Shown piece after piece: positions 2,897 through 27,205 of a stretch of 64,000 nucleotides of DNA. Position 1 is the stretch's first letter. Every line of letters starts with the position of its first letter. The stretch is taken from the NCBI GenBank assembly GCA_964291675.2, contig OZ219866.1, positions 3,200,001 through 3,264,000 of the forward strand. Reading direction: 5' to 3'. The notes under the pieces are model-generated. The model made no database searches. It saw only the letters and a list, made by a program, of their open reading frames with translations, and was not told the DNA's origin. The position numbers and the translations under genes were made by a program. Source of the stretch: Alphaproteobacteria bacterium (lineage in GTDB: Bacteria > Pseudomonadota > Alphaproteobacteria > MPNO01).

Positions 2897-4054
2897 TCAC
2901 CCGCCGTATTCCCGCAACACGCGCCGCGCCAGCGCCATCTTGAGGATCTCGGTCGGGCCCTCGGTGATCACGAAGCTCCGCTGGTCGCGCCACATGCGCT
3001 CGATCGGCAGGTCGGTGGTGAGCCCGATGCCGCCATGGATCTGGAGGCAGCGATCCGCCGCCTCGAAGGACCGGGTGTCGCCGAGATACTTGCACATATA
3101 GGCCTCGTAGCGGACGTCCTCGCCGCGATCGGCCTTCCAGGCGGCGTGGTGGACCATCAGCCTCAGCCGGTGCAGCTCGGCATAGGTGTCGACCAGCATC
3201 CACTGCACCGCCTGGCGCTCGGCGAGCTTCTCGCCGAAGGTGACGCGCTGCCCGGCGTAGGAGGCGCCGAGCTCGAGGCAGCGCTCCATCACCCCGATGC
3301 CGCGCGCGCCGTGGCGGATCCGTCCCGCGCTGATCCAGTTCTGCGCGAACCTGAAGCCGTCGCCCTCCTCGCCGATGCGGTTCTCGACGGGAACCCGCAC
3401 CTCCTCGAAGGCGATCTCCCACGGCCGGTCGTCCATCATCGTTTCCTGCGGGCGCAGCAGCGTCACCCCGGGCGTGTCCATGTCGACGAGGAACGCGGAG
3501 ATCCCGCCGCGCGAGCCCTTGGCGCGGTCGGTGGCGGCGAACACCTGGGCGAAATCCGCCTCGTCGGCGCCGGTGATGAAGCGCTTGGTGCCGTCGATCA
3601 CGTAGTAGTCGCCGTCGCGCACGGCAGTCGAGCGCATGGCGCCCGGATCGCCGCCCGCGTCGGGCTCGGTCTGGGCGAAGCAGGCCTTCTTCTCGCCGGC
3701 GACGACCGGCAGCAGATAGCGCTCCTTCTGCGCTGCGTCGAGGAAGTAGAGGATCGGGCTCACCGCCGGTCCGAAGATGCTGGCGTTGCGCGAGGGGAGC
3801 GCGATGGTGCGGCCGAGCTCGGCCCACACCACGGCGCGGGCCAAGAGCCCGAGCCCGAGCCCGCCATATTCCTCCGGCACGTCGTAGAGCCAGAGCCCGA
3901 GCGCCTTCGCCTTGTCCTCCAGCACGGCGCGCACGTCCGGCTTGAGCTTGCCGCCCTCGCAGGTCTCGCGCTCGATCGGGATCAGCTCGCGGTCGACGAA
4001 GCGCCGCACCGTCTGCTTCAGCATCGCGAGCTCTTCCGGCAGGTCGAAATTCAT
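2897..4054 (-). CDS. Acyl-CoA dehydrogenase
   Basis: PEEYGGLG, FAQTEPDAGGD, GTKRFIT, QIHGGIG and ITEGPTEI motifs. Confidence 0.93.
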   Translation of the reverse strand: MNFDLPEELAMLKQTVRRFVDRELIPIERETCEGGKLKPDVRAVLEDKAKALGLWLYDVPEEYGGLGLGLLARAVVWAELGRTIALPSRNASIFGPAVSPILYFLDAAQKERYLLPVVAGEKKACFAQTEPDAGGDPGAMRSTAVRDGDYYVIDGTKRFITGADEADFAQVFAATDRAKGSRGGISAFLVDMDTPGVTLLRPQETMMDDRPWEIAFEEVRVPVENRIGEEGDGFRFAQNWISAGRIRHGARGIGVMERCLELGASYAGQRVTFGEKLAERQAVQWMLVDTYAELHRLRLMVHHAAWKADRGEDVRYEAYMCKYLGDTRSFEAADRCLQIHGGIGLTTDLPIERMWRDQRSFVITEGPTEILKMALARRVLREYGG

Positions 4055-12464: not shown

Positions 12465-12531
12465 CGGGGCCGCCGCCCGCGAGGCGAGCGGTGGCGAGAG
12501 GTGCCGGCGCCAGTGGATGCCCGGACCGGTT

Positions 12532-12813
12532 CCATTGCTGTCCGGTTTGGTATTTCGACGCGGCCTCCGTGACCATGAGCATCGACGTCTCGGCCCCCCT
12601 TTTGTCACCCCGGACGCCGATCCGGGGGAAGCCGGGCGACGACGGTGCCCGTGGCTCTGGGCCCCGGATCAAGTCCGGGCTGACAAAAGGGGGGACAGAG
12701 ACGGCAAATGCGGACGTGCCGCGATCCGTGTCCCGATTCGGCCGATGCGCCGATATCCCGTCCGTAGCAAGGGCTTGGACCCCGTCCAACTCAGCTAAAC
12801 CGGACAGCAGTGG
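12532..12813. mobile_element. MITE-like element with about 17-bp terminal inverted repeats
   Basis: CCATTGCTGTCCGGTTT at 12532 and AAACCGGACAGCAGTGG ending at 12813. No transposase inside. Confidence 0.7.
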
Positions 12814-13010
12814 ATCGAGTCCGGCCATGACCGGGCGGCGACGTTCCGGGCATTCATGGGCGCCGCCTTTCCCCACCGGCCGCCTGGCGGGCGGAGAGGG
12901 TCGGGCCGTGTTTCCCGGCTGAAGCCGCGCGCCGCATCGACGATCGCGGCGAGAAGGCCGAAGCCTGCGAGCTCCTCGACAGCCCGCCGGATCGCGGCTA
13001 GGCTCGCGCC

Positions 13011-13283
13011 ATGTCCGCCGAGCTGATCGCCATAATCGCCGTCGGGGTCGCCTTGGGATCGCTCACGGCGGGTCTGATTCTGCGGATCGACCGGCGGATG
13101 GACCGGCTCGAAACCCGGATGGACCGGCTCGAAACCCGGCTCGAAACCCGGATCGACGGCTATATCGCCGAGGCCGGCAACGACCGCCGCGCGTTCCAGG
13201 CCGCGATGGACGACTTCCGCCGGGAGATGCAGCGCCTCGCCGAGCGCCAGTCCCACGTCGAAGGCCTGCGCGCCGCCGAGTAA
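13011..13283 (+). CDS. Small membrane-anchored coiled-coil protein, copy 1
   Basis: N-terminal TM helix and MDRLETR heptad repeats. Near-identical to two downstream copies. Confidence 0.8.
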   Translation: MSAELIAIIAVGVALGSLTAGLILRIDRRMDRLETRMDRLETRLETRIDGYIAEAGNDRRAFQAAMDDFRREMQRLAERQSHVEGLRAAE

Positions 13284-13864
13284 GCGGCCGCCTCCTCGCC
13301 GCCGTCCCTGCGGCGGCTTCCCTCGCCGTCGCCGATGCGCTCGAACCCCTCAGGGTCCGCCACGCCGACCTGCCCGCGACCTCGCAACCGATGTGGCGCG
13401 CGATCCGCGACGCGGCGGTGGGGCAAAGCGTCCTTCGACACGCCCCGGATCGGGTCCGGGGGTGTTCCACTGCTGTCCGGTCTGGATTTTCGACGCGGGC
13501 CGCACCCGGCTCTCCTTGCTCCTCCACCGCCACCACCCCGTCATGGCCGGACTTGATCCGGCCATCCATGCGGCATCCGCGCGCACGGCGATCCGGCTGG
13601 AAGGATGCCGATGGGGCGGGCCGCACCCGGCTCGCCATGCACAGCCCATGGATGCCCGGATCACCCCCGGACTTGATCCGGGGGCCGGGCATGACGACAT
13701 GAGGGCAGGTAGGACGTCGACCATGACCGGCGGCGGTCCCCTCGTCGATCCGCGCCATCCGACAGCTCGTCAAGTAATCTGGATAAGCCCCTATCGAAGA
13801 ACGGCCCCGGTGCGGAGCCTGCGAGCTCCTCGACAGCCCGCCGGATCGCGGCTAGGCTCGCGCC

Positions 13865-14158
13865 ATGTCGGCAGAGCTGATCGCCATAATCGCCGTCGGG
13901 GTCGCCCTGGGATCGCTCACGGCGGGTCTGATTCTGCGGATCGACCGCCGGATCGACCGGCTCGAAACCCGGCTTGAAGCCCGGATGGACCGGCTAGAAA
14001 CCCGGATGGACCGGCTCGAAACCCGGATCGACGGCTATATCGCCGAGGCCGGCAACGACCGCCGCGCGTTCCAGGCCGCGATGGACGACTTCCGCCGGGA
14101 GATGCAGCGCCTCGCCGAGCGCCAGTCCCACGTCGAAGGCCTGCGCGCCGCCGAGTAA
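13865..14158 (+). CDS. Small membrane-anchored coiled-coil protein, copy 2
   Basis: Same as copy 1 with a longer heptad tract (97 aa). Confidence 0.8.
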   Translation: MSAELIAIIAVGVALGSLTAGLILRIDRRIDRLETRLEARMDRLETRMDRLETRIDGYIAEAGNDRRAFQAAMDDFRREMQRLAERQSHVEGLRAAE

Positions 14159-14303
14159 ACGGCCGCCTCCTCGCCGCCGTCCCTGCGGCGGCTTGCCTCG
14201 CCGTCGCCGATGCGCTCGAACTCCTCGGGGTCCGCCACGCCGGCCTGCCCGCGACCTCGCAACCGATGTGGCGCGCGATCCGCGACGCGGCCGTGGGGCA
14301 AAG

Positions 14304-14420
14304 CGCCCTTCGATACGCCCCGGATCGGGTCCGGGGCTACTCGGGATGAGGGGTTTCTCTTTGGCCCAGCCAACCTCTCCTCATTCCCGGTGGCCCCTGA
14401 AGGGGGCGTATCGAAGAACG
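14304..14420. repeat. REP-like palindromic intergenic element, copy 3
   Basis: CCTTCGATACGCCC...GGGCGTATCGAAG ends with a CTACTCGGGATGAGG core. Confidence 0.65.
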
Positions 14421-14481
14421 GCCCCGGTGCGGAGCCTGCGAGCTCCTCGACAGCCCGCCGGATCGCGGCTAGGCTCGCGCC

Positions 14482-14721
14482 ATGTCGGTCGAGCTGATCG
14501 CCATGCTCGCCGTCGGGGTCGCCCTGGGATCGCTCACGGCGGGCCTGACTCTGCGGATCGACCAGCGGATGGACCGGCTCGAAACCCGGCTCGACGGCTA
14601 TATCGCCGAGGCCGGCAACGACCGCCGCGCGTTCCAGGCCGCGATGGACGACTTCCGCCGGGAGATGCAGCGCCTCGCCGAGCGCCAGTCCCACGTCGAA
14701 GGCCTGCGCGCCGCCGAGTAA
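14482..14721 (+). CDS. Small membrane-anchored coiled-coil protein, copy 3
   Basis: Same as copy 1 with a single heptad (79 aa). Confidence 0.8.
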   Translation: MSVELIAMLAVGVALGSLTAGLTLRIDQRMDRLETRLDGYIAEAGNDRRAFQAAMDDFRREMQRLAERQSHVEGLRAAE

Positions 14722-15150
14722 ACGGCCGCCTCCTCGCCGCCGTCCCTGCGGCGGCTTGCCTCGCCGTCGCCGATGCGCTCGAACCCCTCGGTGTCCGCCA
14801 CGCCGGCCTGCCCGCAACCTCGCAACCGATGTGGCGCGCGATCCGCGACGCGGCGGTGGGCCAGAGCGCCCTTCGATACATCCCGGATCGGGTCCGGGGG
14901 GACAAAAGGGGGGACAAGGACGGCGAATGCGGGCGTGCCGCGATCCGTGTCCCGATCCGGCCGATGCGCCGATATCCCGTCCGTACCAAGGGCTTGCACC
15001 CCGTCCAACTCAGCTGAACCGGACAGCAGTGGATCGAGTCCGGGCATGACGGTGGGGGGCGATAGCGGCTCCCCCCACCCGTCATGGCCGGACGTGATCC
15101 GGCCATCCATGCCGCCGTCCGCACGGCCGCCGGACGGAAGGGGGCGCGCC

Positions 15151-17649: not shown

Positions 17650-17771
17650 CCGCCGCGCCGCGTCCCGCCGGGACGCCGGGCCGGATTCGGGGCGAATGGG
17701 GGTTTTGCGCGGGCGGCTTACCATTTGCGGCACGCTCTTGAGGCGATGGATAAGTCAACAATGCTGACCAT

Positions 17772-17787
17772 TGTTTCACGTGAAACA
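17772..17787. promoter_or_regulatory. parS centromere-like site (ParB binding)
   Basis: Exact match to the 16-bp palindromic consensus TGTTTCACGTGAAACA. Confidence 0.85.
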
Positions 17788-17997
17788 TTAAATAATACAG
17801 GTTTCGGATGCGTAATCAGGCCGTATCAGCGCTTGTCAGGATTTGTATGGAGTGGGTGTTTTCTGCTTTATTCCAATAGCTTGCGGATGTATCGGATTGC
17901 CATTCGGTGGCTAGCGTTTCCCCCTCTGATCCACGGTTGACTTTCATGTGTTGAGGTTCTAGATGATATTTCGAGAGATTTTAGAGAGGGTGTCTCT

Positions 17998-19230
17998 ATG
18001 TCAACACTGTCCGGAAAACGGGTCGCCCAGCTCAAGCTCACATTGAATAAGCGCAGCGTCGAGGCCCTCATGCCGGCCGACAAACCCTTCATCGCCTGGG
18101 ACGACAGGCTGACGGGGTTCGGGGTCAGGGTACAGCCCTCGGGGGTGCGGTCCTATCTGGTGAACTACCGCGCCTCGGGCGGCGGCAGGCGGGCCGCCAA
18201 CCGGCGGCTCGTCATCGGCCGGCACGGGCGGGTCTCGGCAGAGCAGGCAAGACGCATCGCCCACGAGACGCTCGGCAAGGTCGCCGCCGGGGAGGACCCG
18301 GCGGAGGGGCGCACCCGGTCGCGGTCGACGCCCACGCTGCGCGAGGCCTTCGAGGAGTACCTGTCGATGGGGCCGGAGAGGAAGCCGCGCACCGTCGAGG
18401 TCTACCGGAGGACGGTGTATCACGATCTCGAGCCCTGGCTCGACCGGTCGCTCAACACAATCTCCCGCAAGGACGTCGAGCAGTGCTTCAACCGGCTGAC
18501 CTCCGAGATCGGCTGGGTGGGGGCCAACTCGGCGCTCATCATGCTGGGGGCGCTGTACCGGCGGCAATGCGTCGACGTCCAGGGTCTGCACAACCCGGTG
18601 GCGCAGTGGCGCGCGGCGGGCGGGCGGCTGCACCGCCAGCGGCGGCGGCGCATCCAGCCTCCGGCCGAGGTTCTGCCGCGCTGGCACAGGGGGATCGAGA
18701 AGGGGGTTCGCAACCCGGTGGCGCGGGATGCGCTGCGGCTCGGCCTCTACACCGGCATGCGCCATTCCGAGGTGCTGGAGCTACGCTGGGACATGGTGGA
18801 CCTCGATGCGATGACGCTGACGGTCGAGGAGACCAAGTCGGGCGAGCCGCTGGAGATCCCGATCGTCCGGCAGGTCGGGGAGATCCTCCGACGCCGCGCG
18901 GCCGAGCGCGGGAACTTTCCGGCGGAGAGCCGCGTCTGGGTGTTCCCGTCGGAGACCAGCGCCTCGGGGCGGCTCGTGACGACGCAGCAGCTGAACGCGC
19001 GGATCGGCGAGGCGGGCGGTGCGAAGTTCTGGTTCCATGCGCTGCGCAACTGCTTCATCACGGTGGCGGACCGGGAGCTGATGCTGCCGACCAGTCTCAC
19101 CAAGCGGCTGGTCAACCATGCGAGGCCCAGCGACGTCACCGAGGGCTACGCGTCGGACTGGACGGCGGACCAGCTCCGCGAGGCCGCGCAGCGCATCGCC
19201 GATCGCATCGATGAGCTGATCAAATGTTGA
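17998..19230 (+). CDS. Tyrosine integrase with N-terminal arm-binding domain
   Basis: WDDRLTGFGVRV arm domain. Catalytic residues in TGMRHSE, TKSG, FHALRN, VNH and EGY. Confidence 0.92.
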   Translation: MSTLSGKRVAQLKLTLNKRSVEALMPADKPFIAWDDRLTGFGVRVQPSGVRSYLVNYRASGGGRRAANRRLVIGRHGRVSAEQARRIAHETLGKVAAGEDPAEGRTRSRSTPTLREAFEEYLSMGPERKPRTVEVYRRTVYHDLEPWLDRSLNTISRKDVEQCFNRLTSEIGWVGANSALIMLGALYRRQCVDVQGLHNPVAQWRAAGGRLHRQRRRRIQPPAEVLPRWHRGIEKGVRNPVARDALRLGLYTGMRHSEVLELRWDMVDLDAMTLTVEETKSGEPLEIPIVRQVGEILRRRAAERGNFPAESRVWVFPSETSASGRLVTTQQLNARIGEAGGAKFWFHALRNCFITVADRELMLPTSLTKRLVNHARPSDVTEGYASDWTADQLREAAQRIADRIDELIKC

Positions 19231-19634
19231 GCTCAACATTTTGACTATGCACTTATCGGTCGTGCGCAGCAGGACCGATAAGAGCATTGAGCTGAGCCGC
19301 ACGGCGGAGCGGTGACTCCGAGCTACGGCAAAGTATCCGCTCAGCAAGAGTCGACTACGCCAGGAAGTCACAGAAATGGGCGCGCGGTCCGATTTCATGG
19401 TTTAACTTGTCCACAAATTCGGTTGTTCCGGTGAGGAACTGACGACCGCGAGCGGGAGAACGAAAAAAGAAGGCAATTACATACCTAACTGTGCAAACAC
19501 AGAAACCAAACTGTCCCCAACGGCATTCCAACCGGAGACTACAGGACCATCACTGATCCAAACAGGCTAACTGTGAAAACCGTCCAAAAAAACACCATAA
19601 GCCTAAGACCAAACCCCCACAAAAAACACCTTGC

Positions 19635-19663
19635 TTGACCTCCTTAGATCGCCCTGCTATTCG
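19635..19663 (+). promoter_or_regulatory. sigma70-type promoter of the tRNA-like gene
   Basis: TTGACC, 17-nt spacer, TATTCG with an extended -10 TG. Ends 8 nt before tRNA position 1. Confidence 0.6.
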
Positions 19664-19671
19664 TTCAACGT

Positions 19672-19759
19672 CTAGTAGTGGCGAAAATGGTAGACGCGAC
19701 CGATTACCAATCGGTTAAGTGTAATGCTTGTGGGGGTTCGAGTCCCTCCTACTAGACCA
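19672..19759 (+). tRNA. Atypical class II tRNA: Leu-type body, anticodon ACC (Gly), encoded CCA
   Basis: Acceptor CTAGTAG/CTACTAG plus A73 and CCA; D-arm GCG-AAAATGGTAGA-CGC; anticodon arm ACCGA-TTACCAA-TCGGT; 16-nt variable region with a stem; T-arm GGGGG-TTCGAGT-CCCTC. Confidence 0.85.
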
Positions 19760-19822
19760 GCGGGGACAGACTTCGGCATTGCTGATGTTTGGTCCCCGCA
19801 CTTCTATTTATCCACCTACAAT

Positions 19823-20167
19823 CTACTCCCCGCCGCGTTCGACCGCCTTCAAATCAGTCAACACCGAAACAGCATTGTCTATCAGATAACCCTTGGTCTG
19901 GACCAATGAATCCCCGCTATCGGAAAATACCGAGTCCATCTCGCCTTTCATTCCTTCCAAAGCCTCAATATCACGATCCGCAAGAGCATTGCCGACGTGC
20001 CCGATAAACGAGATAAGTCCATCAACCGATATATCCGAACTATCCTCCTTCAACCCGGCTAATTCCTTCACTCGTTCTAACTCTTTCAAGTATTTCCCTT
20101 TCCTCAAATCTCGCAACAAGTCCTTGAACCAATTAGGTCTCCGCTTTGCTGACTGTAGAATTGTCAT
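19823..20167 (-). CDS. Hypothetical protein (low-GC cargo)
   Basis: 114-aa ORF with a GGGGA RBS, divergent from the transposase. Confidence 0.6.
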   Translation of the reverse strand: MTILQSAKRRPNWFKDLLRDLRKGKYLKELERVKELAGLKEDSSDISVDGLISFIGHVGNALADRDIEALEGMKGEMDSVFSDSGDSLVQTKGYLIDNAVSVLTDLKAVERGGE

Positions 20168-20208
20168 CTTTCCCCACTAAAATTTATCAAACAATCACCA
20201 ATAAGCCC

Positions 20209-20237
20209 TTGACAAAAGCACCATAAAAGCCTATATT
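20209..20237 (+). promoter_or_regulatory. sigma70 promoter of IS1595 transposase
   Basis: TTGACA, 17-nt spacer, TATATT. Confidence 0.7.
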
Positions 20238-20265
20238 AACACCATCAAACAAGGGATATTAGACG

Positions 20266-21201
20266 ATGAAAGCGCCCGGCAAATCGGACAGAGACGGCAT
20301 CACAATAATTCAATTATTCAAGATGTTTCCTGATGATGATACCGCTCAGGCTTGGTTTGAAGAAAAGCGGTGGGGAAAAGACAAAGATAACCCGACTTGC
20401 CCCAAGTGTGGCACCATTGACAAGACCAAGCGCACTCCGACACACACTATGCCCTATTACTGCAATTCGTGCCGGAGAGGTTTCAGTGTCCGCACCGGAA
20501 CCGCAATGCAGAAATCTCAAATCGGCTACCAGAAATGGGCAATTGCGATCTATATGACCATTACCAGCCTGAAAGGGGTTTCCTCAATGAAGCTCCATAG
20601 GGAATTGGGGATAACCCAAAAGTCAGCTTGGTATATGGAGCATCGCATTCGCACTGGCTTTGGTGGCGTTGATCTGCCTTTCGCCGGACCGGTCGAAGCG
20701 GACGAAACCTATATCGGCGGGAAGGAAAAGAACAAGCACAAGTACAAGAAGCTGAATGCCGGACGCGGCGGGGTCGGCAAGAGTATTGTTGCTGGCATTA
20801 AGGGTCGCAAGACCAAACAGATTACCGCCAAAGTCGTTTATGAAACCTCTGCAATGACTTTACAGGGTTATGTCCGGGCGAACACCAAAGAAGGCACGAT
20901 GGTCTATACCGACGAAAGCAAGTCCTACAAGGGTCTGCCCTATCACCAGTCAGTCAATCATACCGCCAAGCAATGGGTTGTCGGACAAGCCCACACAAAC
21001 GGGATGGAGAATTTCTGGTCTATTTTCAAGCGAGCGTATCACGGAACTTTCCACCGGATGAGCGCAAAGCACCTGCATCGCTATGTCAATGAATTCGCCG
21101 GTCGGCACAATATCCGGGAAATGGACACCAAGGACCAGATGACGGCGATCTTCCAAGGGATGGTCGGCAAGAGCCTGCCCTATGCCGATCTGGTGGCTTG
21201 A
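20266..21201 (+). CDS. IS1595-family transposase
   Basis: CPKC...CNSC zinc ribbon, KGVSSMKLHRELG HTH, VEADETYIGG, YTDE and HTNGMENFWSIFKR. Confidence 0.95.
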   Translation: MKAPGKSDRDGITIIQLFKMFPDDDTAQAWFEEKRWGKDKDNPTCPKCGTIDKTKRTPTHTMPYYCNSCRRGFSVRTGTAMQKSQIGYQKWAIAIYMTITSLKGVSSMKLHRELGITQKSAWYMEHRIRTGFGGVDLPFAGPVEADETYIGGKEKNKHKYKKLNAGRGGVGKSIVAGIKGRKTKQITAKVVYETSAMTLQGYVRANTKEGTMVYTDESKSYKGLPYHQSVNHTAKQWVVGQAHTNGMENFWSIFKRAYHGTFHRMSAKHLHRYVNEFAGRHNIREMDTKDQMTAIFQGMVGKSLPYADLVA

Positions 21202-21234
21202 CAAGCCGTTTCCCTTCGTCCTAGCCTTTTCCCT

Positions 21235-21386
21235 GCTATCGCACATAGACGCGCTGAGTCGGGTCGCCCGCTGAATAGAACAGCCGCAAGACCCGGCAGG
21301 GGTAGCTCCCCCGCCCGGCGAATAGGCGGGGTCTCTCACTTTCTGTGTGCGATAGCAACGGCCCGACACCATTCGGGCCGGTTGCT
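21235..21386 (+). ncRNA. Candidate structured RNA/leader, copy A
   Basis: 14-bp closing stem (21235-21248 with 21343-21356), GGTAGCT core, following GGCCCGA...TCGGGCC hairpin, and upstream TTGACA-18-TAGCCT. Confidence 0.5.
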
Positions 21387-21409
21387 GACTGGCGCAATGG
21401 AGGCGGGAA

Positions 21410-21832
21410 ATGAAGAAGATCGTGCTGGCGGGGATGGTTGCGGCCCTTATGGGTTGGAGTGGTTCGGTGGAGGCAAAGACTACCAAGTGTATTTTGAAGG
21501 GAGTCGGTTTTTCCGATGTAGATGCTCGCCAGTCTGCGATACTGGAACAAGTAGGAGCTACTTGCGAAACGATCATAGATGGACGCGCGATACAAAGACG
21601 GCAATCAGATACTACCGATATTTGCGGGCAAGCTAAGCAGGCTTGTAGCAATGTAATTTATTCCTGTAGGCGGAACGCGAGACTCGCACAAGCCGAACGT
21701 TATATGTGCCAGAATGCCACCAGTCATCGCATTTTGCTAAGTTGTCTCAAGACAAGAAACACGGCGGCAAAGCATTGCCGGTCTGCGACAAATTGCTTGA
21801 GGCAATACGGTTGTATGGAAAGTGTCCAATGA
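21410..21832 (+). CDS. Secreted cysteine-rich hypothetical protein
   Basis: Signal peptide MKKIVLAGMVAALMGWSGSVEA, 10 Cys, GGAGG RBS. Confidence 0.75.
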   Translation: MKKIVLAGMVAALMGWSGSVEAKTTKCILKGVGFSDVDARQSAILEQVGATCETIIDGRAIQRRQSDTTDICGQAKQACSNVIYSCRRNARLAQAERYMCQNATSHRILLSCLKTRNTAAKHCRSATNCLRQYGCMESVQ

Positions 21833-22137
21833 CTGTCGTTCATGCGCTGGTGCTTGTGGCCTATAGCGCACTGGCTCAAGAAGTCACTCGGACTAAGATC
21901 ATGTCTTTTCACAAGAACCATTTCTCTTGTGTTCAGACTATGAATAAGGAACGGTTCAGGGGTCGCCGGTTACAATTCAATGAGAACTACGTCTGCCTAC
22001 AGCTACAGGATTCCCACATAGGCTCACAGCTGCTACGTATGGGCGGGAATGATCGGATTGTGATTCATGGAACCAAGCGGTTCTTTAACAAGCCAAAGCG
22101 GGATAGGTGGTATCAGAAGCGGAAATGGGATAGGTGA
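21829..22137 (+). CDS. Small hypothetical, probably secreted
   Basis: ATGA overlap with the previous stop; hydrophobic N-terminus ending in ALA. Confidence 0.55.
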   Translation: MTVVHALVLVAYSALAQEVTRTKIMSFHKNHFSCVQTMNKERFRGRRLQFNENYVCLQLQDSHIGSQLLRMGGNDRIVIHGTKRFFNKPKRDRWYQKRKWDR

Positions 22138-22334
22138 AGGAGGATGAAGGGATGACGAAAACGAAGGTTGTCAAAGGCGAGAACTTTGATATTGATCTTC
22201 AAGCCGAAATCAACGGACAATGGGAAACGGTTGTCACCATTCCTTGTTCATCGGAGGAACAGCATGAGAAACTTTCGAAAGGAATACTTGATTGGGGGCA
22301 CTATGTAATGAATGAAACTCGGTGTAGTCCTTAA
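22134..22334 (+). CDS. Small hypothetical protein
   Basis: GTGA overlap with the previous ORF; alternative ATG behind GGAGG. Confidence 0.45.
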   Translation: MKEDEGMTKTKVVKGENFDIDLQAEINGQWETVVTIPCSSEEQHEKLSKGILDWGHYVMNETRCSP

Positions 22335-22801
22335 TCCCTGTTCGTCCTTTTTGTCATATGTCTTGACGAATCGAAGCTGGTCTCGATCTAACGTGTAGAT
22401 TTGATCCACTTCACCGTTTGAACGGGTTTGGTGGAAAAGTCAATAGACAATAGTCTATTGTCTACCGGTAGGGCCTTGTTCCGTTTCGCACTGGACTTCT
22501 TCGCTGGCTCTGGCCCATTTGTGGTTGGATCGGATCACGAAGAGACAGACGACGCGGACGATGCCCAGTAAACGCAATCAAACGTATCAAATCGATGTCG
22601 AGGTAGTCACCCTGAATTCGGGTCAGCCGGCAGTTCGCCTTGCATGCCTTTGGTGCAATTGTCTCAGCCCCTCCCCGTTCCGGTCCGCGATCGCCCTCAA
22701 TTCTATCGCTCCTCGATGCAGCACAGCTGGCACAGGCTCTTTCAATAGACCTCTTTCGCGCCGTGACATGCGGTTGAAATCGCGGCTGCCGGGGCCTTTA
22801 G

Positions 22802-23134
22802 TCATGGTCCGCTCAAATTCTTGAGTTCTTCTTCGTAAAACTTCTTTCGCAAAGCCTTGTAAACCCGTTCGTATTCCCACTTCCCGGCAATACAGGTCGG
22901 CCAATAAGAGGCGTCTTTTCTGGAACAGTGGCTTAGCCTCTTTTTTCCTTCAGACGTTCCGGTTATGGCCTTGAAGGCTCGATAATAAGCCCGTTTGTAC
23001 GCCTTTTCGGACAGCTTTATTGCCGCAATCATCTCCTCGGCAAGAAGAACGTCCTCCTTCTCGCCGGAAGCCGCTTCGCTCGTCGTCGTAACCACCAACC
23101 CGACTACCACTGACACCAAGAGGACTATACGCAT
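22802..23134 (-). CDS. Secreted hypothetical protein
   Basis: Signal peptide MRIVLLVSVVVGLVVTTTSEA and GGAGG RBS. Confidence 0.7.
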   Translation of the reverse strand: MRIVLLVSVVVGLVVTTTSEAASGEKEDVLLAEEMIAAIKLSEKAYKRAYYRAFKAITGTSEGKKRLSHCSRKDASYWPTCIAGKWEYERVYKALRKKFYEEELKNLSGP

Positions 23135-23158
23135 GCCACCCTCCCCGGCTTGTGTGTC

Positions 23159-23310
23159 GGCCCCGGCTGGTGCCGGGCCGTGTCATCGTCGAGCAGAGAG
23201 CAAGAGGTTCTACCTTTTCGCCCGTGGCAGCGTAGCTACTCCCTTCCGTCGATCGGGCTCTTCGATTCAACAGAAGACGCAACGTGGCGGGCTCCGCTCG
23301 ATCAAGTGAC
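23159..23310 (-). ncRNA. Candidate structured RNA/leader, copy B
   Basis: Closing stem TCGAGCGGAG/CTCTGCTCGA, GTAGCT core and following GGCCCGGCACCAGCCGGGGCC hairpin. Same layout as copy A. Confidence 0.45.
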
Positions 23311-23735
23311 GGGAAGATGCTCCGTCGAACCGAGAAAAGCGTCAACCCCCCTGTGAGTCTTGCGGGATTTCGACGGCGATGCTACGGTGAGAAATGGTAG
23401 TCTCGGCCACAAGGGTCGGGGCACTGAATCACCGATGGGGCGGCATCCGAATCGGTTCACACAGGTCCAGCATGGATAGGCATCCCACGGCAGACTTTCC
23501 CTCGGAACGAACCTGTGACGGAACGAATTGCGTAAACCGGCCAAGCGTGCGCTCACCGGTAGGCGAGGAAACATATGGAAGACCCGCGTGCTCAATGCTT
23601 TAGGGAACTTCGAAGGCTCGAAAGTCTAGGCCATGAGGGCCTTCAGTATCTTTTTCACGAGAACCGGGAAACCGCTGAAGGCGGGATCGATGCCTGGATA
23701 ATCTGGGATCGGACCGGACAGGTCTTGGCAAGCGC

Positions 23736-23999
23736 ATGAGCCGGATCGTACGAAAAAGGAGGTCCGGATGCCGAATTGGGATAGCAACCGATGTTGCTGT
23801 TCGGGTGGCCGATCTTAAATCGGCCGGGAAAGTACCAAATGACGCGAAGTACAGAACGCTTTCTTCCGGATTGACATACAAACAGGCGAACGCTGAAGAG
23901 AAAGTACGACGACAGCGTTGTGGGCCGCATTGCGATGGAGAGTTGGGCGGTAGACCGAAGCCAGGAAGAGTATGGAGCGTCTATAGGATTGACTGGTGA
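23736..23999 (+). CDS. Small basic hypothetical protein (paralog of 24693)
   Basis: CRIGIATDV...RTL..GLTY..A...E...CGPHC pattern shared with the ORF at 24693. Confidence 0.65.
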   Translation: MSRIVRKRRSGCRIGIATDVAVRVADLKSAGKVPNDAKYRTLSSGLTYKQANAEEKVRRQRCGPHCDGELGGRPKPGRVWSVYRIDW

Positions 24000-24234
24000 T
24001 CGTTCAGTCGGCCACCAGATCCCGATACATCAGCCTGCAGCCCGTGAGCGCTGCAACGCCAGTCATCGTCTGCGCGTCCGTCTAAGCGCGCCGGGCGTTG
24101 TGCTGGCCGGAGAACTCTTTGACGTATCGTTCGGGGTACGCCTTCGAGATCTTGCGGTAGACGCATTTGTGCGCTCGTTTCAGCGTCGCAGAGAATCTCG
24201 CTATTCCCTCCGTATGAACGTCCCCGCGGACATA
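24000..24234 (-). pseudogene. IS1595 transposase C-terminal remnant
   Basis: YVRGDVHTEGIARFSATLKRAHKCVYRKISKAYPERYVKEFSGQHNAR, degenerate relative to the intact copies. Confidence 0.8.
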
Positions 24235-24692
24235 GACCGCCGCCGGCCCGCACGGCTGGGGAAAGGGAACGGCGGATACCTGCAAGGAGATGTGGAGGCA
24301 GGTCGCCGCGGACATCAATTCCCTCCCGCCCGACGTGCGCACCCGGCAATACACCTCGGCGATCGTCAAGTCCGCGCAGGCGATGTACCGCTGGTGCGAG
24401 GCGAACATGGCCTCCTGCGCGCGCCAGAGGGAGGAGGTCGAGCCGCGGGGATGCGCCCTGATCCCAGGGGTCGTCACCTATACCCTGAATCGAAAATTGT
24501 CCTGGACGGTGAACTGCACGAACACGACCTTGATGCTGCCGGGGAAGTGCTGAGCGGTGCTGCGCGACCCTCTCACTTATCTGAGGGTGAACGAGGCGGC
24601 GTGTCGGGGGAATTAGGAGTTCTGCCCCTTTCTTATTTACCCGCCCGGCCTGAGCGGGTTCAACCGTGCCGGTGGATCGGGAGATTGGCGAT

Positions 24693-25055
24693 ATGAAGTG
24701 CTGGGTCGGCATCTCTATGGACGTTGCGGCTCATGTCGCCCCGCTCAAGGCCGCGAACTTGGTCCCGGCCGACGCCTCGTGGAGGACGCTGGCCGAGAAG
24801 CTTACCTACGACGAGGCCGTGGTTCTCGAATACTCCGAGCGAAGGGAATGCGGCCCCCTTTGCCGGGGCGCGGGTCGCGCCGAAGAAGCGCCGGATCGCC
24901 ACCTCGGGTCCGTGATCTCCGGGGCGGCGTGCCCCGCCAACCCGAGACCCTGCAACCCCCAACCCGACACCGACCAACTCAAATCACGGCGCTACGAAGG
25001 CGTCGAACACCCCCATGCGCGCGCAAAATCAGGCGACAATCGCTCTGTTCCATGA
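24693..25055 (+). CDS. Hypothetical protein, paralog of 23736 (C-terminus possibly degenerate)
   Basis: MKCWVGISMDVAAHVAPLKAANLVPADASWRTLAEKLTYDEA...CGPLC. Confidence 0.5.
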   Translation: MKCWVGISMDVAAHVAPLKAANLVPADASWRTLAEKLTYDEAVVLEYSERRECGPLCRGAGRAEEAPDRHLGSVISGAACPANPRPCNPQPDTDQLKSRRYEGVEHPHARAKSGDNRSVP

Positions 25056-25652
25056 ATAAGTCGGGCTACCACGTCGAGCCGTACACCCCCCATGCGACGG
25101 CGCCGATGGGCACATGGGGGAACGTCGGCGGCGCACTCTCAGCGCAGACCGTCGCGAGCTCGTTCAAGAGCGACTTCTCGGCACCATCCACTACCGCTAC
25201 AACGTGGTGGCCACCGCAGTCCCCGCGAACGGCTATGTCTACGAGGTTCGCGGAAACCATTTCTACGACACCTACATTCCTTCCGGGGCAACAACCGAGC
25301 GCTGGCGGCAGCGCGCCGATCCGCCGGGATGGCTGGGCGAGGGCAACCGGACGGAGCTTCTGTCCCGTACGAGCGCCACGGGCGACTGGGGCTACGTCAC
25401 CCACTCCAACAGGGTCGAATACCTGAGGGCCTTCACAGCGGGCACGGCCGAGCATACAGAGCCGATCTGGACTCGGCTCGGGACGGCGGCGGAGGGACGA
25501 CCAACGTCTTCGACTGGGCGAGACGCTGGAAGACTACGAGGATCGGGTCCCGGCGGACGATGCGATCGCCGCCGCGGCCGTGGAGGCGAGGCGCGAGGCG
25601 CATGCGGGGTGCACCGGCGATGGCTGATCACATGAAATCCCGTCGACGCCCC

Positions 25653-26225
25653 TCAGCGCGCCGCGCGCAGGGACAACTGCGATGACAGATGGCGCAGGTT
25701 TCGGTGAATGAACTCGATAAAAAAAGATATGTCTTCCATATAGTGCCGCGCTTCGAGTCGCTCCACCTGCTCATACGAGTAGCGCGCCTTATAAACCATC
25801 ACGTCTTGGTCGAAATACTCGAGAATATCTTCCAAAGTGGACAGCCTACGGCGGGCAGGCGGTACGGGAGGGTTGGCGGGGTCTTCGAAGTGCAGGTAGG
25901 CGACCATCTTAGTGTTGCAGCCTATGTCCTGGGAGAGCCTGTTGAGGCGCACCTTCTCCAGATTGGGCAGGAGGCTGTACAGTTTTACCAGACCGTGCGT
26001 GTTGTCGTATGGAAGTTCACTTATCCGGAGCATCAGCTTGAACATTAGCTCTAGGGATGTTCCTAAATTGAAGTGCGAGACCGCCTTCATGGACGCGCAG
26101 GCGTCGGAGTTCTCGTCCACATTGGCCTTTCGTATCCACGCTTCCAAGAGGCGGGCGGCCTCCTTGAAGTCATGAATATTTTGGCAGAGAAACGTGAGGG
26201 CGAGCCTCTGTTCTGGGTTAGACAT
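25653..26225 (-). CDS. HEPN-like domain protein
   Basis: FNLGTSLELMFK...THGLVKLY...ARYSYE pattern; lower GC than its flanks. Confidence 0.6.
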   Translation of the reverse strand: MSNPEQRLALTFLCQNIHDFKEAARLLEAWIRKANVDENSDACASMKAVSHFNLGTSLELMFKLMLRISELPYDNTHGLVKLYSLLPNLEKVRLNRLSQDIGCNTKMVAYLHFEDPANPPVPPARRRLSTLEDILEYFDQDVMVYKARYSYEQVERLEARHYMEDISFFIEFIHRNLRHLSSQLSLRAAR

Positions 26226-26952
26226 TATTGGGTTTCCTTCTCTAGCGCGACCCTGGAAGACTACGAGGACCGGGTCGCGGCCGACGATGCGATCTCCGCC
26301 GCCGCGCTCAAGGCCTCGCGGGACGCGCACGGGGTGTGCGCCGGGCATAGCTGATGGGGGACGCTACATATCGCCCAACGTAGCCGCCCCCGGGCGAAAC
26401 GGCACGATCACGCCGTTGTCGCCGGTTTTCCTCTCCGCGATTTCTCCGTCATCGGTACCACCGCCGAAGACATTTCGGCAAGGCGGTGGAGCATAGCCGG
26501 TCGGGTTACTCCGGCGCCCCCTGTTGGCGATCATAGTTCGATTGCGGCGCCGGCACCGCGTTCATCACCGCATGGCTCGCATGGGTGTGCCGAGAGTCGT
26601 GCGGCAAGAAACGTATAGGCGCCGGGGATGCGATCAATTCGCACGCATGCGACTGTCGCCGGTACCACCATTGGCATCGGTCGCTGCCGCGCCGACTCAA
26701 CCCCGTCTCCGCGCGCGGCGCATCGCGCGCTGCCGGTGCCATCGCCGCCACCCGTTCCTTCCATTCGAGGCGGCGCGATGGTCGTGTCCCCACGATGGGT
26801 CTGACCACCGTGACGAGTTGCGCCCGGCCATCGTCATCCTCCTCCATCGCCTGTGCGTATCTCTCCATCCCCGTCACCAGATTGCGCGTCCCCGCGCACG
26901 CGCCGGCGGGAGCGAGGGTCTGGCCGGGAGCGGGGCGGCCGGGCGGCGCTGC

Positions 26953-27205
26953 AGAGAGCCCCCGGCCTTCGCCATCGCAGACCAATGGGAGGCACGCCAT
27001 GCGGATTCGCCGGCCGTCGCAGCGCAGCGCACACACGTGCCGAGATCAAGCGCCGAACCAACGTCGTCGGCATCTTCCCCAACGAAGACGCCGTCACCCG
27101 CCTTCGGCGCCTGGTTCGGACGTATTCTGCGGAGAGAGCCCCCGGCCTTCGCCATCGCAGACCAATGGGAGGCACGCCATGCGGATTCGCCGGCCGTCGC
27201 AGCGC
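26953..27205. repeat. 73-bp direct repeat flanking an IS256 transposase fragment
   Basis: 26953-27025 is identical to 27133-27205. The spacer encodes EIKRRTNVVGIFPNEDAVTRL. Confidence 0.8.

Follow-up and report, generated by a model that had tools for sequence, protein, structure and literature searches.

A leucine-type transfer RNA gene with a glycine anticodon on a mobile island in an alphaproteobacterial genome

To our knowledge, natural transfer RNAs (tRNAs) that break the genetic code are known from few lineages only, namely the nematodes with their nev-tRNAs, the actinomycetes with tRNAProX and Candida with its CUG tRNA. A further candidate was found in a stretch of DNA of 64,000 nucleotides (nt) from an alphaproteobacterial genome (GenBank assembly GCA_964291675.2, contig OZ219866.1; positions 3,200,001 to 3,264,000 of the forward strand), referred to here at its full length as the window, in which a single tRNA gene with a leucine-type body and the anticodon ACC is carried by a mobile island. 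The reading favoured here, tentatively and at somewhat less than even confidence, is that this gene, the island tRNA, encodes a horizontally acquired and intact tRNA of hybrid identity, which would be leucylated via A73 and its Leu body and would read the rare codon GGU.

Judged by analogy, the closest parallel to the island tRNA is the nev-tRNA group. According to PMC3333845, nev-tRNA-Gly(CCC) and nev-tRNA-Ile(UAU) are derived from tRNA-Leu, carry A73 and are charged only with leucine, GGG being read as leucine in vitro, and the anticodons of nev-tRNAs correspond to rare codons. A class II, Leu-derived body, A73, a non-Leu (including Gly) anticodon and a rare codon are common to both systems, whereas the nev-tRNAs form eukaryotic chromosomal families, are reported there only from nematodes and have CCC as their Gly anticodon (PMC3333845). 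The island tRNA, in contrast, is a single bacterial copy on a mobile island and has A34 and an encoded CCA. In actinomycetes, tRNAProX is paired with a dedicated paralogue of prolyl-tRNA synthetase (ProRS), whereas no aminoacyl-tRNA synthetase paralogue was seen with the island tRNA, as the genome has one leuS gene and the island open reading frames (ORFs) scanned have none. The members tRNAProA, tRNAProN and tRNAProT are described in PMC11415595 as natural bacterial dual-identity tRNAs with the A34 anticodons AGC, AUU and AGU, indicating that bacteria can keep A34 dual-identity tRNAs, but these have a Pro body where the island tRNA has a Leu body. Literature searches brought up no paper in which a Leu-bodied tRNA from bacteria or phages carries a glycine anticodon, though supplements such as the tRNAscan-SE 2.0 isotype-conflict lists could hold cases. 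What is notable in the island tRNA is its location on a transferable island and the presence of A34 in the glycine box.

The window was found to contain one tRNA called by ARAGORN (coordinates 19672 to 19759, forward strand), reported as tRNA-Gly with ACC at tRNA position 35. It was also the sole RNA match reaching the gathering score in an Rfam scan of the window, the tRNA model aligning end to end with 19672-19756 (50.8 bits; E 6e-08). The gene is 88 nt long and of class II, and ARAGORN, Rfam and the sequence itself agree with the complete cloverleaf and encoded CCA described in an earlier note made from the sequence, the original prediction. The acceptor stem has 7 pairs, from C1-G72 to G7-C66, followed by U8, with C1-G72, U2-A71 and A3-U70 at its top. 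The D stem has 3 bp (GCG/CGC) and an 11-nt loop with GG, and the anticodon stem has 5 bp and the loop UUACCAA (19704-19710), which holds the anticodon at 19706-19708. The variable region, visible as an insertion in the Rfam alignment, is 16 nt long and can form a 5-pair stem in which 2 pairs are G-U, and the T stem has 5 bp and a loop with TTCGA. The discriminator is A73 (19756), after which CCA is encoded, and none of the 25 stem pairs is other than a standard or a G-U pair.

Public contigs covering the gene showed 0 differences from it in two runs from two studies, run X1 spanning 19254-25000 and run X2 spanning 19522-20773, with no alternative letter at 19706-19708. Run X1 is possibly the source of the assembly itself, while run X2 has another organism label and comes from another study. 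The agreement of these contigs ruled out an assembly error as the origin of ACC, and the anticodon placed at these positions by the original prediction is therefore real.

The identity of the tRNA body was examined by comparison with all ARAGORN calls in the host genome (4.8 Mb in 2 contigs, 69% guanine plus cytosine (GC)), which has tRNA-Leu with the anticodons GAG, UAA, CAG, CAA and UAG and tRNA-Gly with GCC, CCC and UCC. The four host tRNAs nearest to the island tRNA were all tRNA-Leu (67-69% identity), whereas the best host tRNA-Gly shared 62.5% identity. The D arm has the same length as those of the host tRNA-Leu and differs at two positions, the Leu-type A15 and U48 (the U before the T stem) are kept, and the T arm is identical to that of host tRNA-Leu(UAG). 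Together with the long variable arm and A73, these sequence features bear out the earlier claim that the body is of Leu type. The island tRNA thus has the D arm, long variable arm, A73 and T arm in common with ordinary bacterial tRNA-Leu, and is unlike it in its Gly-type loop, its C1-G72 pair, its limited identity to the host tRNA-Leu and its GC content of 50%, the lowest among the CCA-ending tRNAs of the genome (mean of 45, 62%). The three host tRNA-Gly are of class I with U73, G1-C72, C2-G71 and G3-C70, and the island tRNA has none of these, so that the absence of U73 and G1-C72, which had also been pointed out before, was found to be correct.

The whole 7-nt anticodon loop is of Gly type, UUACCAA in the island tRNA compared to UUGCCAA in host tRNA-Gly(GCC) (U32 U33 NCC A37 A38), and ACC is not a leucine anticodon. 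It is three changes away from any of the five Leu anticodons of the host and two away from the rare AAG type, which was seen at the viral locus L119. As the loop needs at least two to three changes and no stem pair is disturbed, the island tRNA appears to be a chimera by design and not a Leu gene with one unlucky mutation, and the combination of a Gly-type loop with unbroken stems is, on this pattern, not one of neutral decay. When folded with ViennaRNA, the anticodon stem was extended and a 3-nt loop was left, as the original prediction had anticipated. However, its use of this fold to argue for a non-decoding mimic did not hold, because host tRNA-Gly(GCC) has the same UU...AA context and the argument would apply equally to a normal tRNA-Gly.

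For bacterial leucyl-tRNA synthetase (LeuRS), the recognition elements are A73 and the tertiary core that the D arm defines, and the anticodon is ignored. Bacterial glycyl-tRNA synthetase (GlyRS) requires not only C35 and C36 but also U73 and the first pairs of the acceptor, and TadA edits A34 in the context UACG and not UACC. By these rules, the product of the gene would be expected to receive leucine, to retain A34 and to read GGU for the most part. We infer a course of events in which transcription of the gene would start at a weak promoter-like site and stop at a stable hairpin, giving a short unit of its own, and the single LeuRS of the host would leucylate the tRNA via A73, the Leu-type D arm and the tertiary core, ignoring the anticodon. 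On the ribosome, the unmodified A34 would mainly read GGU, and the outcome would be a low-level, codon-specific substitution of Leu for Gly at the rarest Gly codon of the host. In 1833 long ORFs chosen by a high GC content at third codon positions (GC3), GGT made up 4809 of 90832 Gly codons (5.3%; 5.2 per 1000 codons). This rarity would limit the substitution load, and the resident tRNA-Gly(GCC) reads GGU as well.

The same acceptor and codon data bear on a very improbable alternative, a true glycine tRNA in a class II body that GlyRS would charge via C35 and C36 and that would provide extra GGU decoding. The two anticodon nucleotides and the full Gly-type loop are present as this would require, but A73, C1-G72, U2-A71 and A3-U70 stand in place of the U73, G1-C72, C2-G71 and G3-C70 of the host tRNA-Gly, although U73 and the first pairs of the acceptor are strong requirements of bacterial GlyRS. 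A long variable arm and a D arm of Leu type are likewise at odds with it, and as GGU is rare in the host there would be no demand for its extra decoding.

The host genome (G000) encodes a single leuS of bacterial type, and no aminoacyl-tRNA synthetase domain was found by Pfam in the 38 island or flanking ORFs scanned. The leuS sequence (C2:881603-884407) matched its model in two reading frames, one covering model positions 1-479 and the other 474-842, which meet near C2:883.28 kb; this apparent frameshift probably stems from an indel in the assembly. The genes for glycyl-tRNA synthetase, glyQ (PF02091), glyS (PF02092) and the dimeric form (TIGR00389), were below the cut-off or absent in the host genome and in its relative G001, and a tblastn search of the host genome only, using ORFs from a glyQ locus of a congener (L154), gave no glyQ or glyS match. 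Genome completeness was 93.7% for the host and 100% for G001, which is a single contig, and glyQ was present in 5 of 6 other congeners. The undetected synthetase may be located on a missing replicon or may be an unrecognised enzyme.

Upstream of the gene, a weak promoter-like site was read from the sequence (coordinates 19635 to 19663, forward strand; TTGACC at 19635-19640, a 17-nt spacer and TATTCG at 19658-19663), with the second hexamer ending 8 nt before tRNA position 1. The sigma70-type promoter originally predicted here stands to the extent that both hexamers are present with a 17-nt spacer, but the site matches at only 8 of 12 positions, is without the T at the last -10 position and was not reported by a consensus scan. 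An equally spaced promoter-like pattern was also matched in front of the tRNA-like gene at L010, one of the loci described below. Directly 3' of CCA, between the tRNA and the convergent ORF114, is a terminator-like hairpin followed by a U-containing tail (coordinates 19760 to 19799, forward strand), which folds with -27.3 kcal/mol (z -5.17), a stability reached by 0 of 200 shuffled sequences. The tRNA gene therefore has the appearance of a short unit that is transcribed on its own, and the hairpin and the promoter-like site at the right upstream distance are counted in support of leucylation and GGU reading. An 11-nt stretch upstream of the promoter-like site (19612-19622) was observed to be perfectly complementary to 19728-19738 at the junction of the variable arm and T stem; this is probably due to chance, with ~0.7 such pairs expected in the 2.5 kb examined.

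The island tRNA was found 1.9 kb inside the left end of an insertion of ~46.6 kb (coordinates 17791 to 64000, continuing to ~64350). In the relatives G010, G001 and G009, host DNA up to window positions 17650-17790 runs straight into the equivalent of C2:3264351-3264420, which is just beyond the end of the window, so that the flanks are joined across the island. The insertion site is an intergenic palindrome, and the empty site was seen in G009. A tyrosine integrase gene (coordinates 17998 to 19230, forward strand; Pfam Arm-DNA-bind_3 and Phage_integrase) is at the left end and a TrwC relaxase-helicase of 1390 aa is also encoded, and on this gene content the island is an integrative element, either mobilizable or conjugative, that has been heavily damaged by insertion sequences (IS). 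The tRNA is thus cargo of an element that is absent from relatives, which agrees with its earlier description as a mobile tRNA.

Within the island, the tRNA is in a low-GC block (~19231 to 24000) with 41-60% GC compared to ~70% in the host, which also includes ORF114, an IS1595 copy and largely non-coding DNA, and which is present as a single copy in the genome. This setting raises a possible, though rather doubtful, alternative in which the gene is an inert passenger, its design having been shaped in a donor, that is silent or near-silent here and persists through recent acquisition of the island. The gene is in a decaying, IS-ridden block with few credible ORFs, it is private among the 61 genomes searched and in single copy, and its promoter-like site is weak, though the correct spacing of that site and the terminator-like hairpin suggest a working unit. 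The encoded CCA and the full set of intact stems also speak against a passenger, but a recent acquisition would leave a gene of 88 nt no time to decay, so that intactness proves little. That the element is unchanged in the runs of two studies also argues against this alternative.

Searches for homologues gave no close match to the tRNA with 100-nt flanks in 60 relatives. Weak partial matches in eight of these (34-72 nt; 74-88% identity) are presumably to ordinary class II tRNAs. No close homologue of the tRNA was found in plasmids or phages, and none was found in viral contigs using its 5' or 3' half. A pattern scan was made with the 3' half of the Leu-type D arm, the loop TTACCAA and the T loop, leaving all stems free, so that conservation of the loop in the sequences retrieved is not a finding whereas pairing in the free stems is. 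This ACC pattern matched one locus in 185,579 species genomes (L010, in a metagenome-assembled genome (MAG) of Nitrospinales) and one in viral contigs (L011), and with two degenerate positions added it matched 19 loci in metagenome contigs, while a GCC version matched 7 viral loci. All were recognised as tRNA by ARAGORN and/or Rfam, L014 by Rfam alone. After two loci at contig ends (L016 and L026) had been set aside, 27 of 29 loci could be parsed, giving 22 distinct sequences including the island tRNA, and there are hence 21 distinct other Leu-bodied tRNA-like sequences whose NCC loop is of Gly type. The loci concerned, from metagenomes, MAGs and viral contigs, are L010-L030, L046, L079, L081 and L146-L149. 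The design of the island tRNA is clearly non-accidental and recurs elsewhere.

Across the 22 sequences, pairing was almost complete in the anticodon stem (109/110, with 3-5 pair types per position), the T stem (109/110) and the D stem (65/66). In the acceptor stem, pairs 5-7 were formed in 65/66 cases, pair 4 in 20/22, pair 3 in 16/22, pair 2 in 9/22 and pair 1 in 10/22. A full acceptor of 7 pairs was present in four sequences, the island tRNA, L012, L081 and L146, all of which have A73, and this recurrence of the intact-acceptor design is counted in support of a leucylated tRNA. Of the 22 sequences, 11 have A, 6 have G and 5 have T at position 73, and CCA is encoded in the island tRNA and L081. 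The other UU[A/G]CCAA tRNA-likes therefore share the Leu-type D arm, long variable arm and Gly-type loop with the island tRNA, and three share its full acceptor and A73, but most differ in having an unpaired acceptor top and no CCA. In those with unpaired tops, where pairs 1-2 and sometimes 3-4 are open, pairing is nearly complete in the D, anticodon, variable and T arms and compensatory changes are seen there. The design thus recurs mostly in a form in which the L-shaped body and loop are kept under selection although it cannot be aminoacylated as encoded. The Rfam alignments of several end short of the model ends, which agrees with a design that is kept without a chargeable end. No Thg1 domain, as would serve in repair of mismatched acceptor tops, was found in the two genomes searched, G000 and that of L010.

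The contrast between nearly fully paired body stems and open acceptor tops, and the early ends of the Rfam matches, would be in keeping with an RNA that works away from the ribosome, serving as a decoy or ligand of some factor with specificity for a tRNA body and a Gly-type loop. The target could be an anticodon-directed nuclease or modifier engaged in conflicts of mobile elements or phages with their hosts. For the island tRNA this is an unlikely explanation, as its perfect acceptor, A73 and CCA would be needless in a pure decoy. Some of the tRNA-likes adjoin defence-type genes (PIN_8, HNH, KAP/PifA-like NTPase and AbiC/AbiP-like; PADLOC match in 2 of 8 tested), and the island itself carries a restriction-modification (R-M) enzyme and an NYN-domain protein. 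However, an all-against-all BLASTP comparison of 432 ORFs from the 22 loci revealed no neighbour family shared across lineages, and no nuclease or other partner is adjacent to the island tRNA, ORF114 and the other ORFs of the low-GC block having no PADLOC match. A role as a T-box decoy was rejected, as no T-box to which it could bind was found in G000. Four of the tRNA-likes (L021, L022, L025 and L027) are at the end of a tRNA operon, before the terminator, and some others have an apparent promoter and terminator of their own, the promoters upstream of some being read with what we take to be the Bacteroidota promoter motif.

When the loop was masked, the body of the island tRNA had a mean identity of 70.5% to the ACC set (19 sequences), 73.5% to the GCC set (7 sequences) and 70.7% to 97 ordinary viral tRNA-Leu, among which the best reached 79%. 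As the body is no closer to the NCC-loop set, these identities do not demonstrate a shared ancestry and the design may have several independent origins, and a decoy role for the island tRNA gains no support from a specific relatedness to the acceptor-less sequences. Among the viral matches listed that are of Leu type with a UU...AA loop (n=116), 105 have Leu anticodons. The anticodons are CAA in 61, TAA in 33, CAG in 5, TAG in 5, GAA in 3 and GCC in 3, with one each of AGA, TGT, AAG, TGC, AGT and GCT. Two of these single cases were discarded, as the AGA of L058 is a mis-registered Leu-UAG and L132 (AGT) does not look like a tRNA. On these sequences, Gly is not the sole mismatch and other non-Leu anticodons occur on Leu bodies.

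Viral Leu-bodied tRNAs with a full acceptor and A73 were found at L081 (coordinates 2939 to 3027; GCC), L146 (195 to 281; GCC), L123 (173 to 258; UGC) and L092 (1281 to 1369; UGU). CCA is encoded in three of the four, and L123 and L092 have perfect acceptors and ACCA ends. The GCC tRNA of L081 is in a phage tRNA array, after those for Val, Thr and Asn, and in the long ORFs of this contig GGT is the commonest Gly codon (121 of 261), with GGT and GGC being the main ones. A Leu-inserting tRNA would hurt this phage, and the L081 tRNA would therefore be either glycylated or not used in decoding, and its setting is counted in favour of a true glycine tRNA in a class II body.

Several of these results weigh against leucylation and reading of GGU by the island tRNA. 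Most of the sequences of its design, 18 of 22, are without a full 7-pair acceptor, with mispairing concentrated in the top pairs, so that whatever keeps the design alive elsewhere appears mostly to need no aminoacylation. The loop-masked body is as close to ordinary viral tRNA-Leu as to the ACC set, and the setting of L081 fits a true glycine decoder better than a mistranslator. The C1-G72 pair is unlike the acceptors of the host tRNA-Leu, all of which start with G1. The promoter-like site is imperfect, and the low-GC block, crowded with remnants of IS elements, can code for little, so the tRNA may be a silent passenger. As the gene is private in the searches of the 60 relatives, plasmids, phages, viral contigs and species genomes, purifying selection on it is not measurable.

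A wider interpretation, which is not probable on present evidence, is that the gene is the chargeable form of an undescribed, recurrent class of RNA with a Leu body and a Gly-type NCC loop, carried by phages and mobile elements and acting in conflicts. There may be two forms of such a class, one a full tRNA with A73 and sometimes CCA that would deliver Leu to GGY codons, and the other an acceptor-less small RNA that cannot be charged. They could cause mistranslation at particular codons, or they could draw off a factor that targets the anticodon loop of tRNA-Gly. If the recurrence holds, about twenty unrelated-looking Leu-bodied RNAs with a Gly-type loop, most of them lacking only the acceptor end, would point to use of the tRNA shape and loop outside aminoacylation, and this may matter more than the island gene. 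If leucylation and decoding of GGU by the island tRNA are true, a transferable bacterial gene that inserts Leu at a Gly codon would be added to the known cases, none of which is on a mobile element able to pass between hosts. Were the gene silent, it would still be a documented conflict between isotype and anticodon that annotation pipelines label as tRNA-Gly.

Two further explanations for the position of the tRNA in the island were rejected. It is not the integration site (attB), as no second copy of its 3' 28-mer (with up to 3 mismatches) or 19-mer was found in the window, and the target is the palindrome 1.9 kb to the left; an att-like repeat of the tRNA 3' end was likewise found neither in the window nor in the available flanks of 28 related loci. 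It is also not a passenger inside an IS1595 copy, as no convincing terminal inverted repeats enclose it. An IS1595-family transposase gene (coordinates 20266 to 21201, forward strand; Pfam DDE_Tnp_IS1595, 2.5e-36, plus its zinc ribbon) is present in the low-GC block, and an inverted, degraded IS1595-type remnant (23981 to 24480, reverse strand), in which an ORF end resembles the C-terminus of the intact copy, is at its right edge. Inverted matches join 20935-21197 to 23987-24036, and the inverted copies bracket 20266-24480, with the tRNA just outside the bracket. None of 10 ORFs of the low-GC block was matched using PADLOC and NCBIfam. Among the matches listed from 11 congeners, none falls within window positions 19243-27127. 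Paralogues of the integrase with 69-87% identity are found in the same genome and genus, and other copies of this family diverge from the island copy near 19300.

The small conserved protein encoded by ORF114 (coordinates 19823 to 20167, reverse strand), which is convergent with the tRNA, has five homologues with 58-87% identity and 37 invariant positions. The family had no match in Pfam, NCBIfam or PADLOC, and ORF114 was not found in viral contigs, plasmids, 400 genomes of the class or 77 other genomes of the order. A sponge metagenome run contains 267 nt of ORF114 with 1 difference. The remainder of the island includes genes for SSB, a DUF7146-Toprim protein, a YspA/SLOG protein, a Calx-beta protein and a second IS1595 transposase, in addition to the relaxase-helicase and the NYN-domain protein, and the R-M enzyme is a protein of 930 aa of the Eco57I/N6-methylase type. 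Transposition genes of the IS66, Tn5-like and rve/AAA_22 types are also present. A second, smaller insertion was observed to the left of the island (coordinates 12468 to 15150), between stretches that are directly adjacent in G010 and G001.

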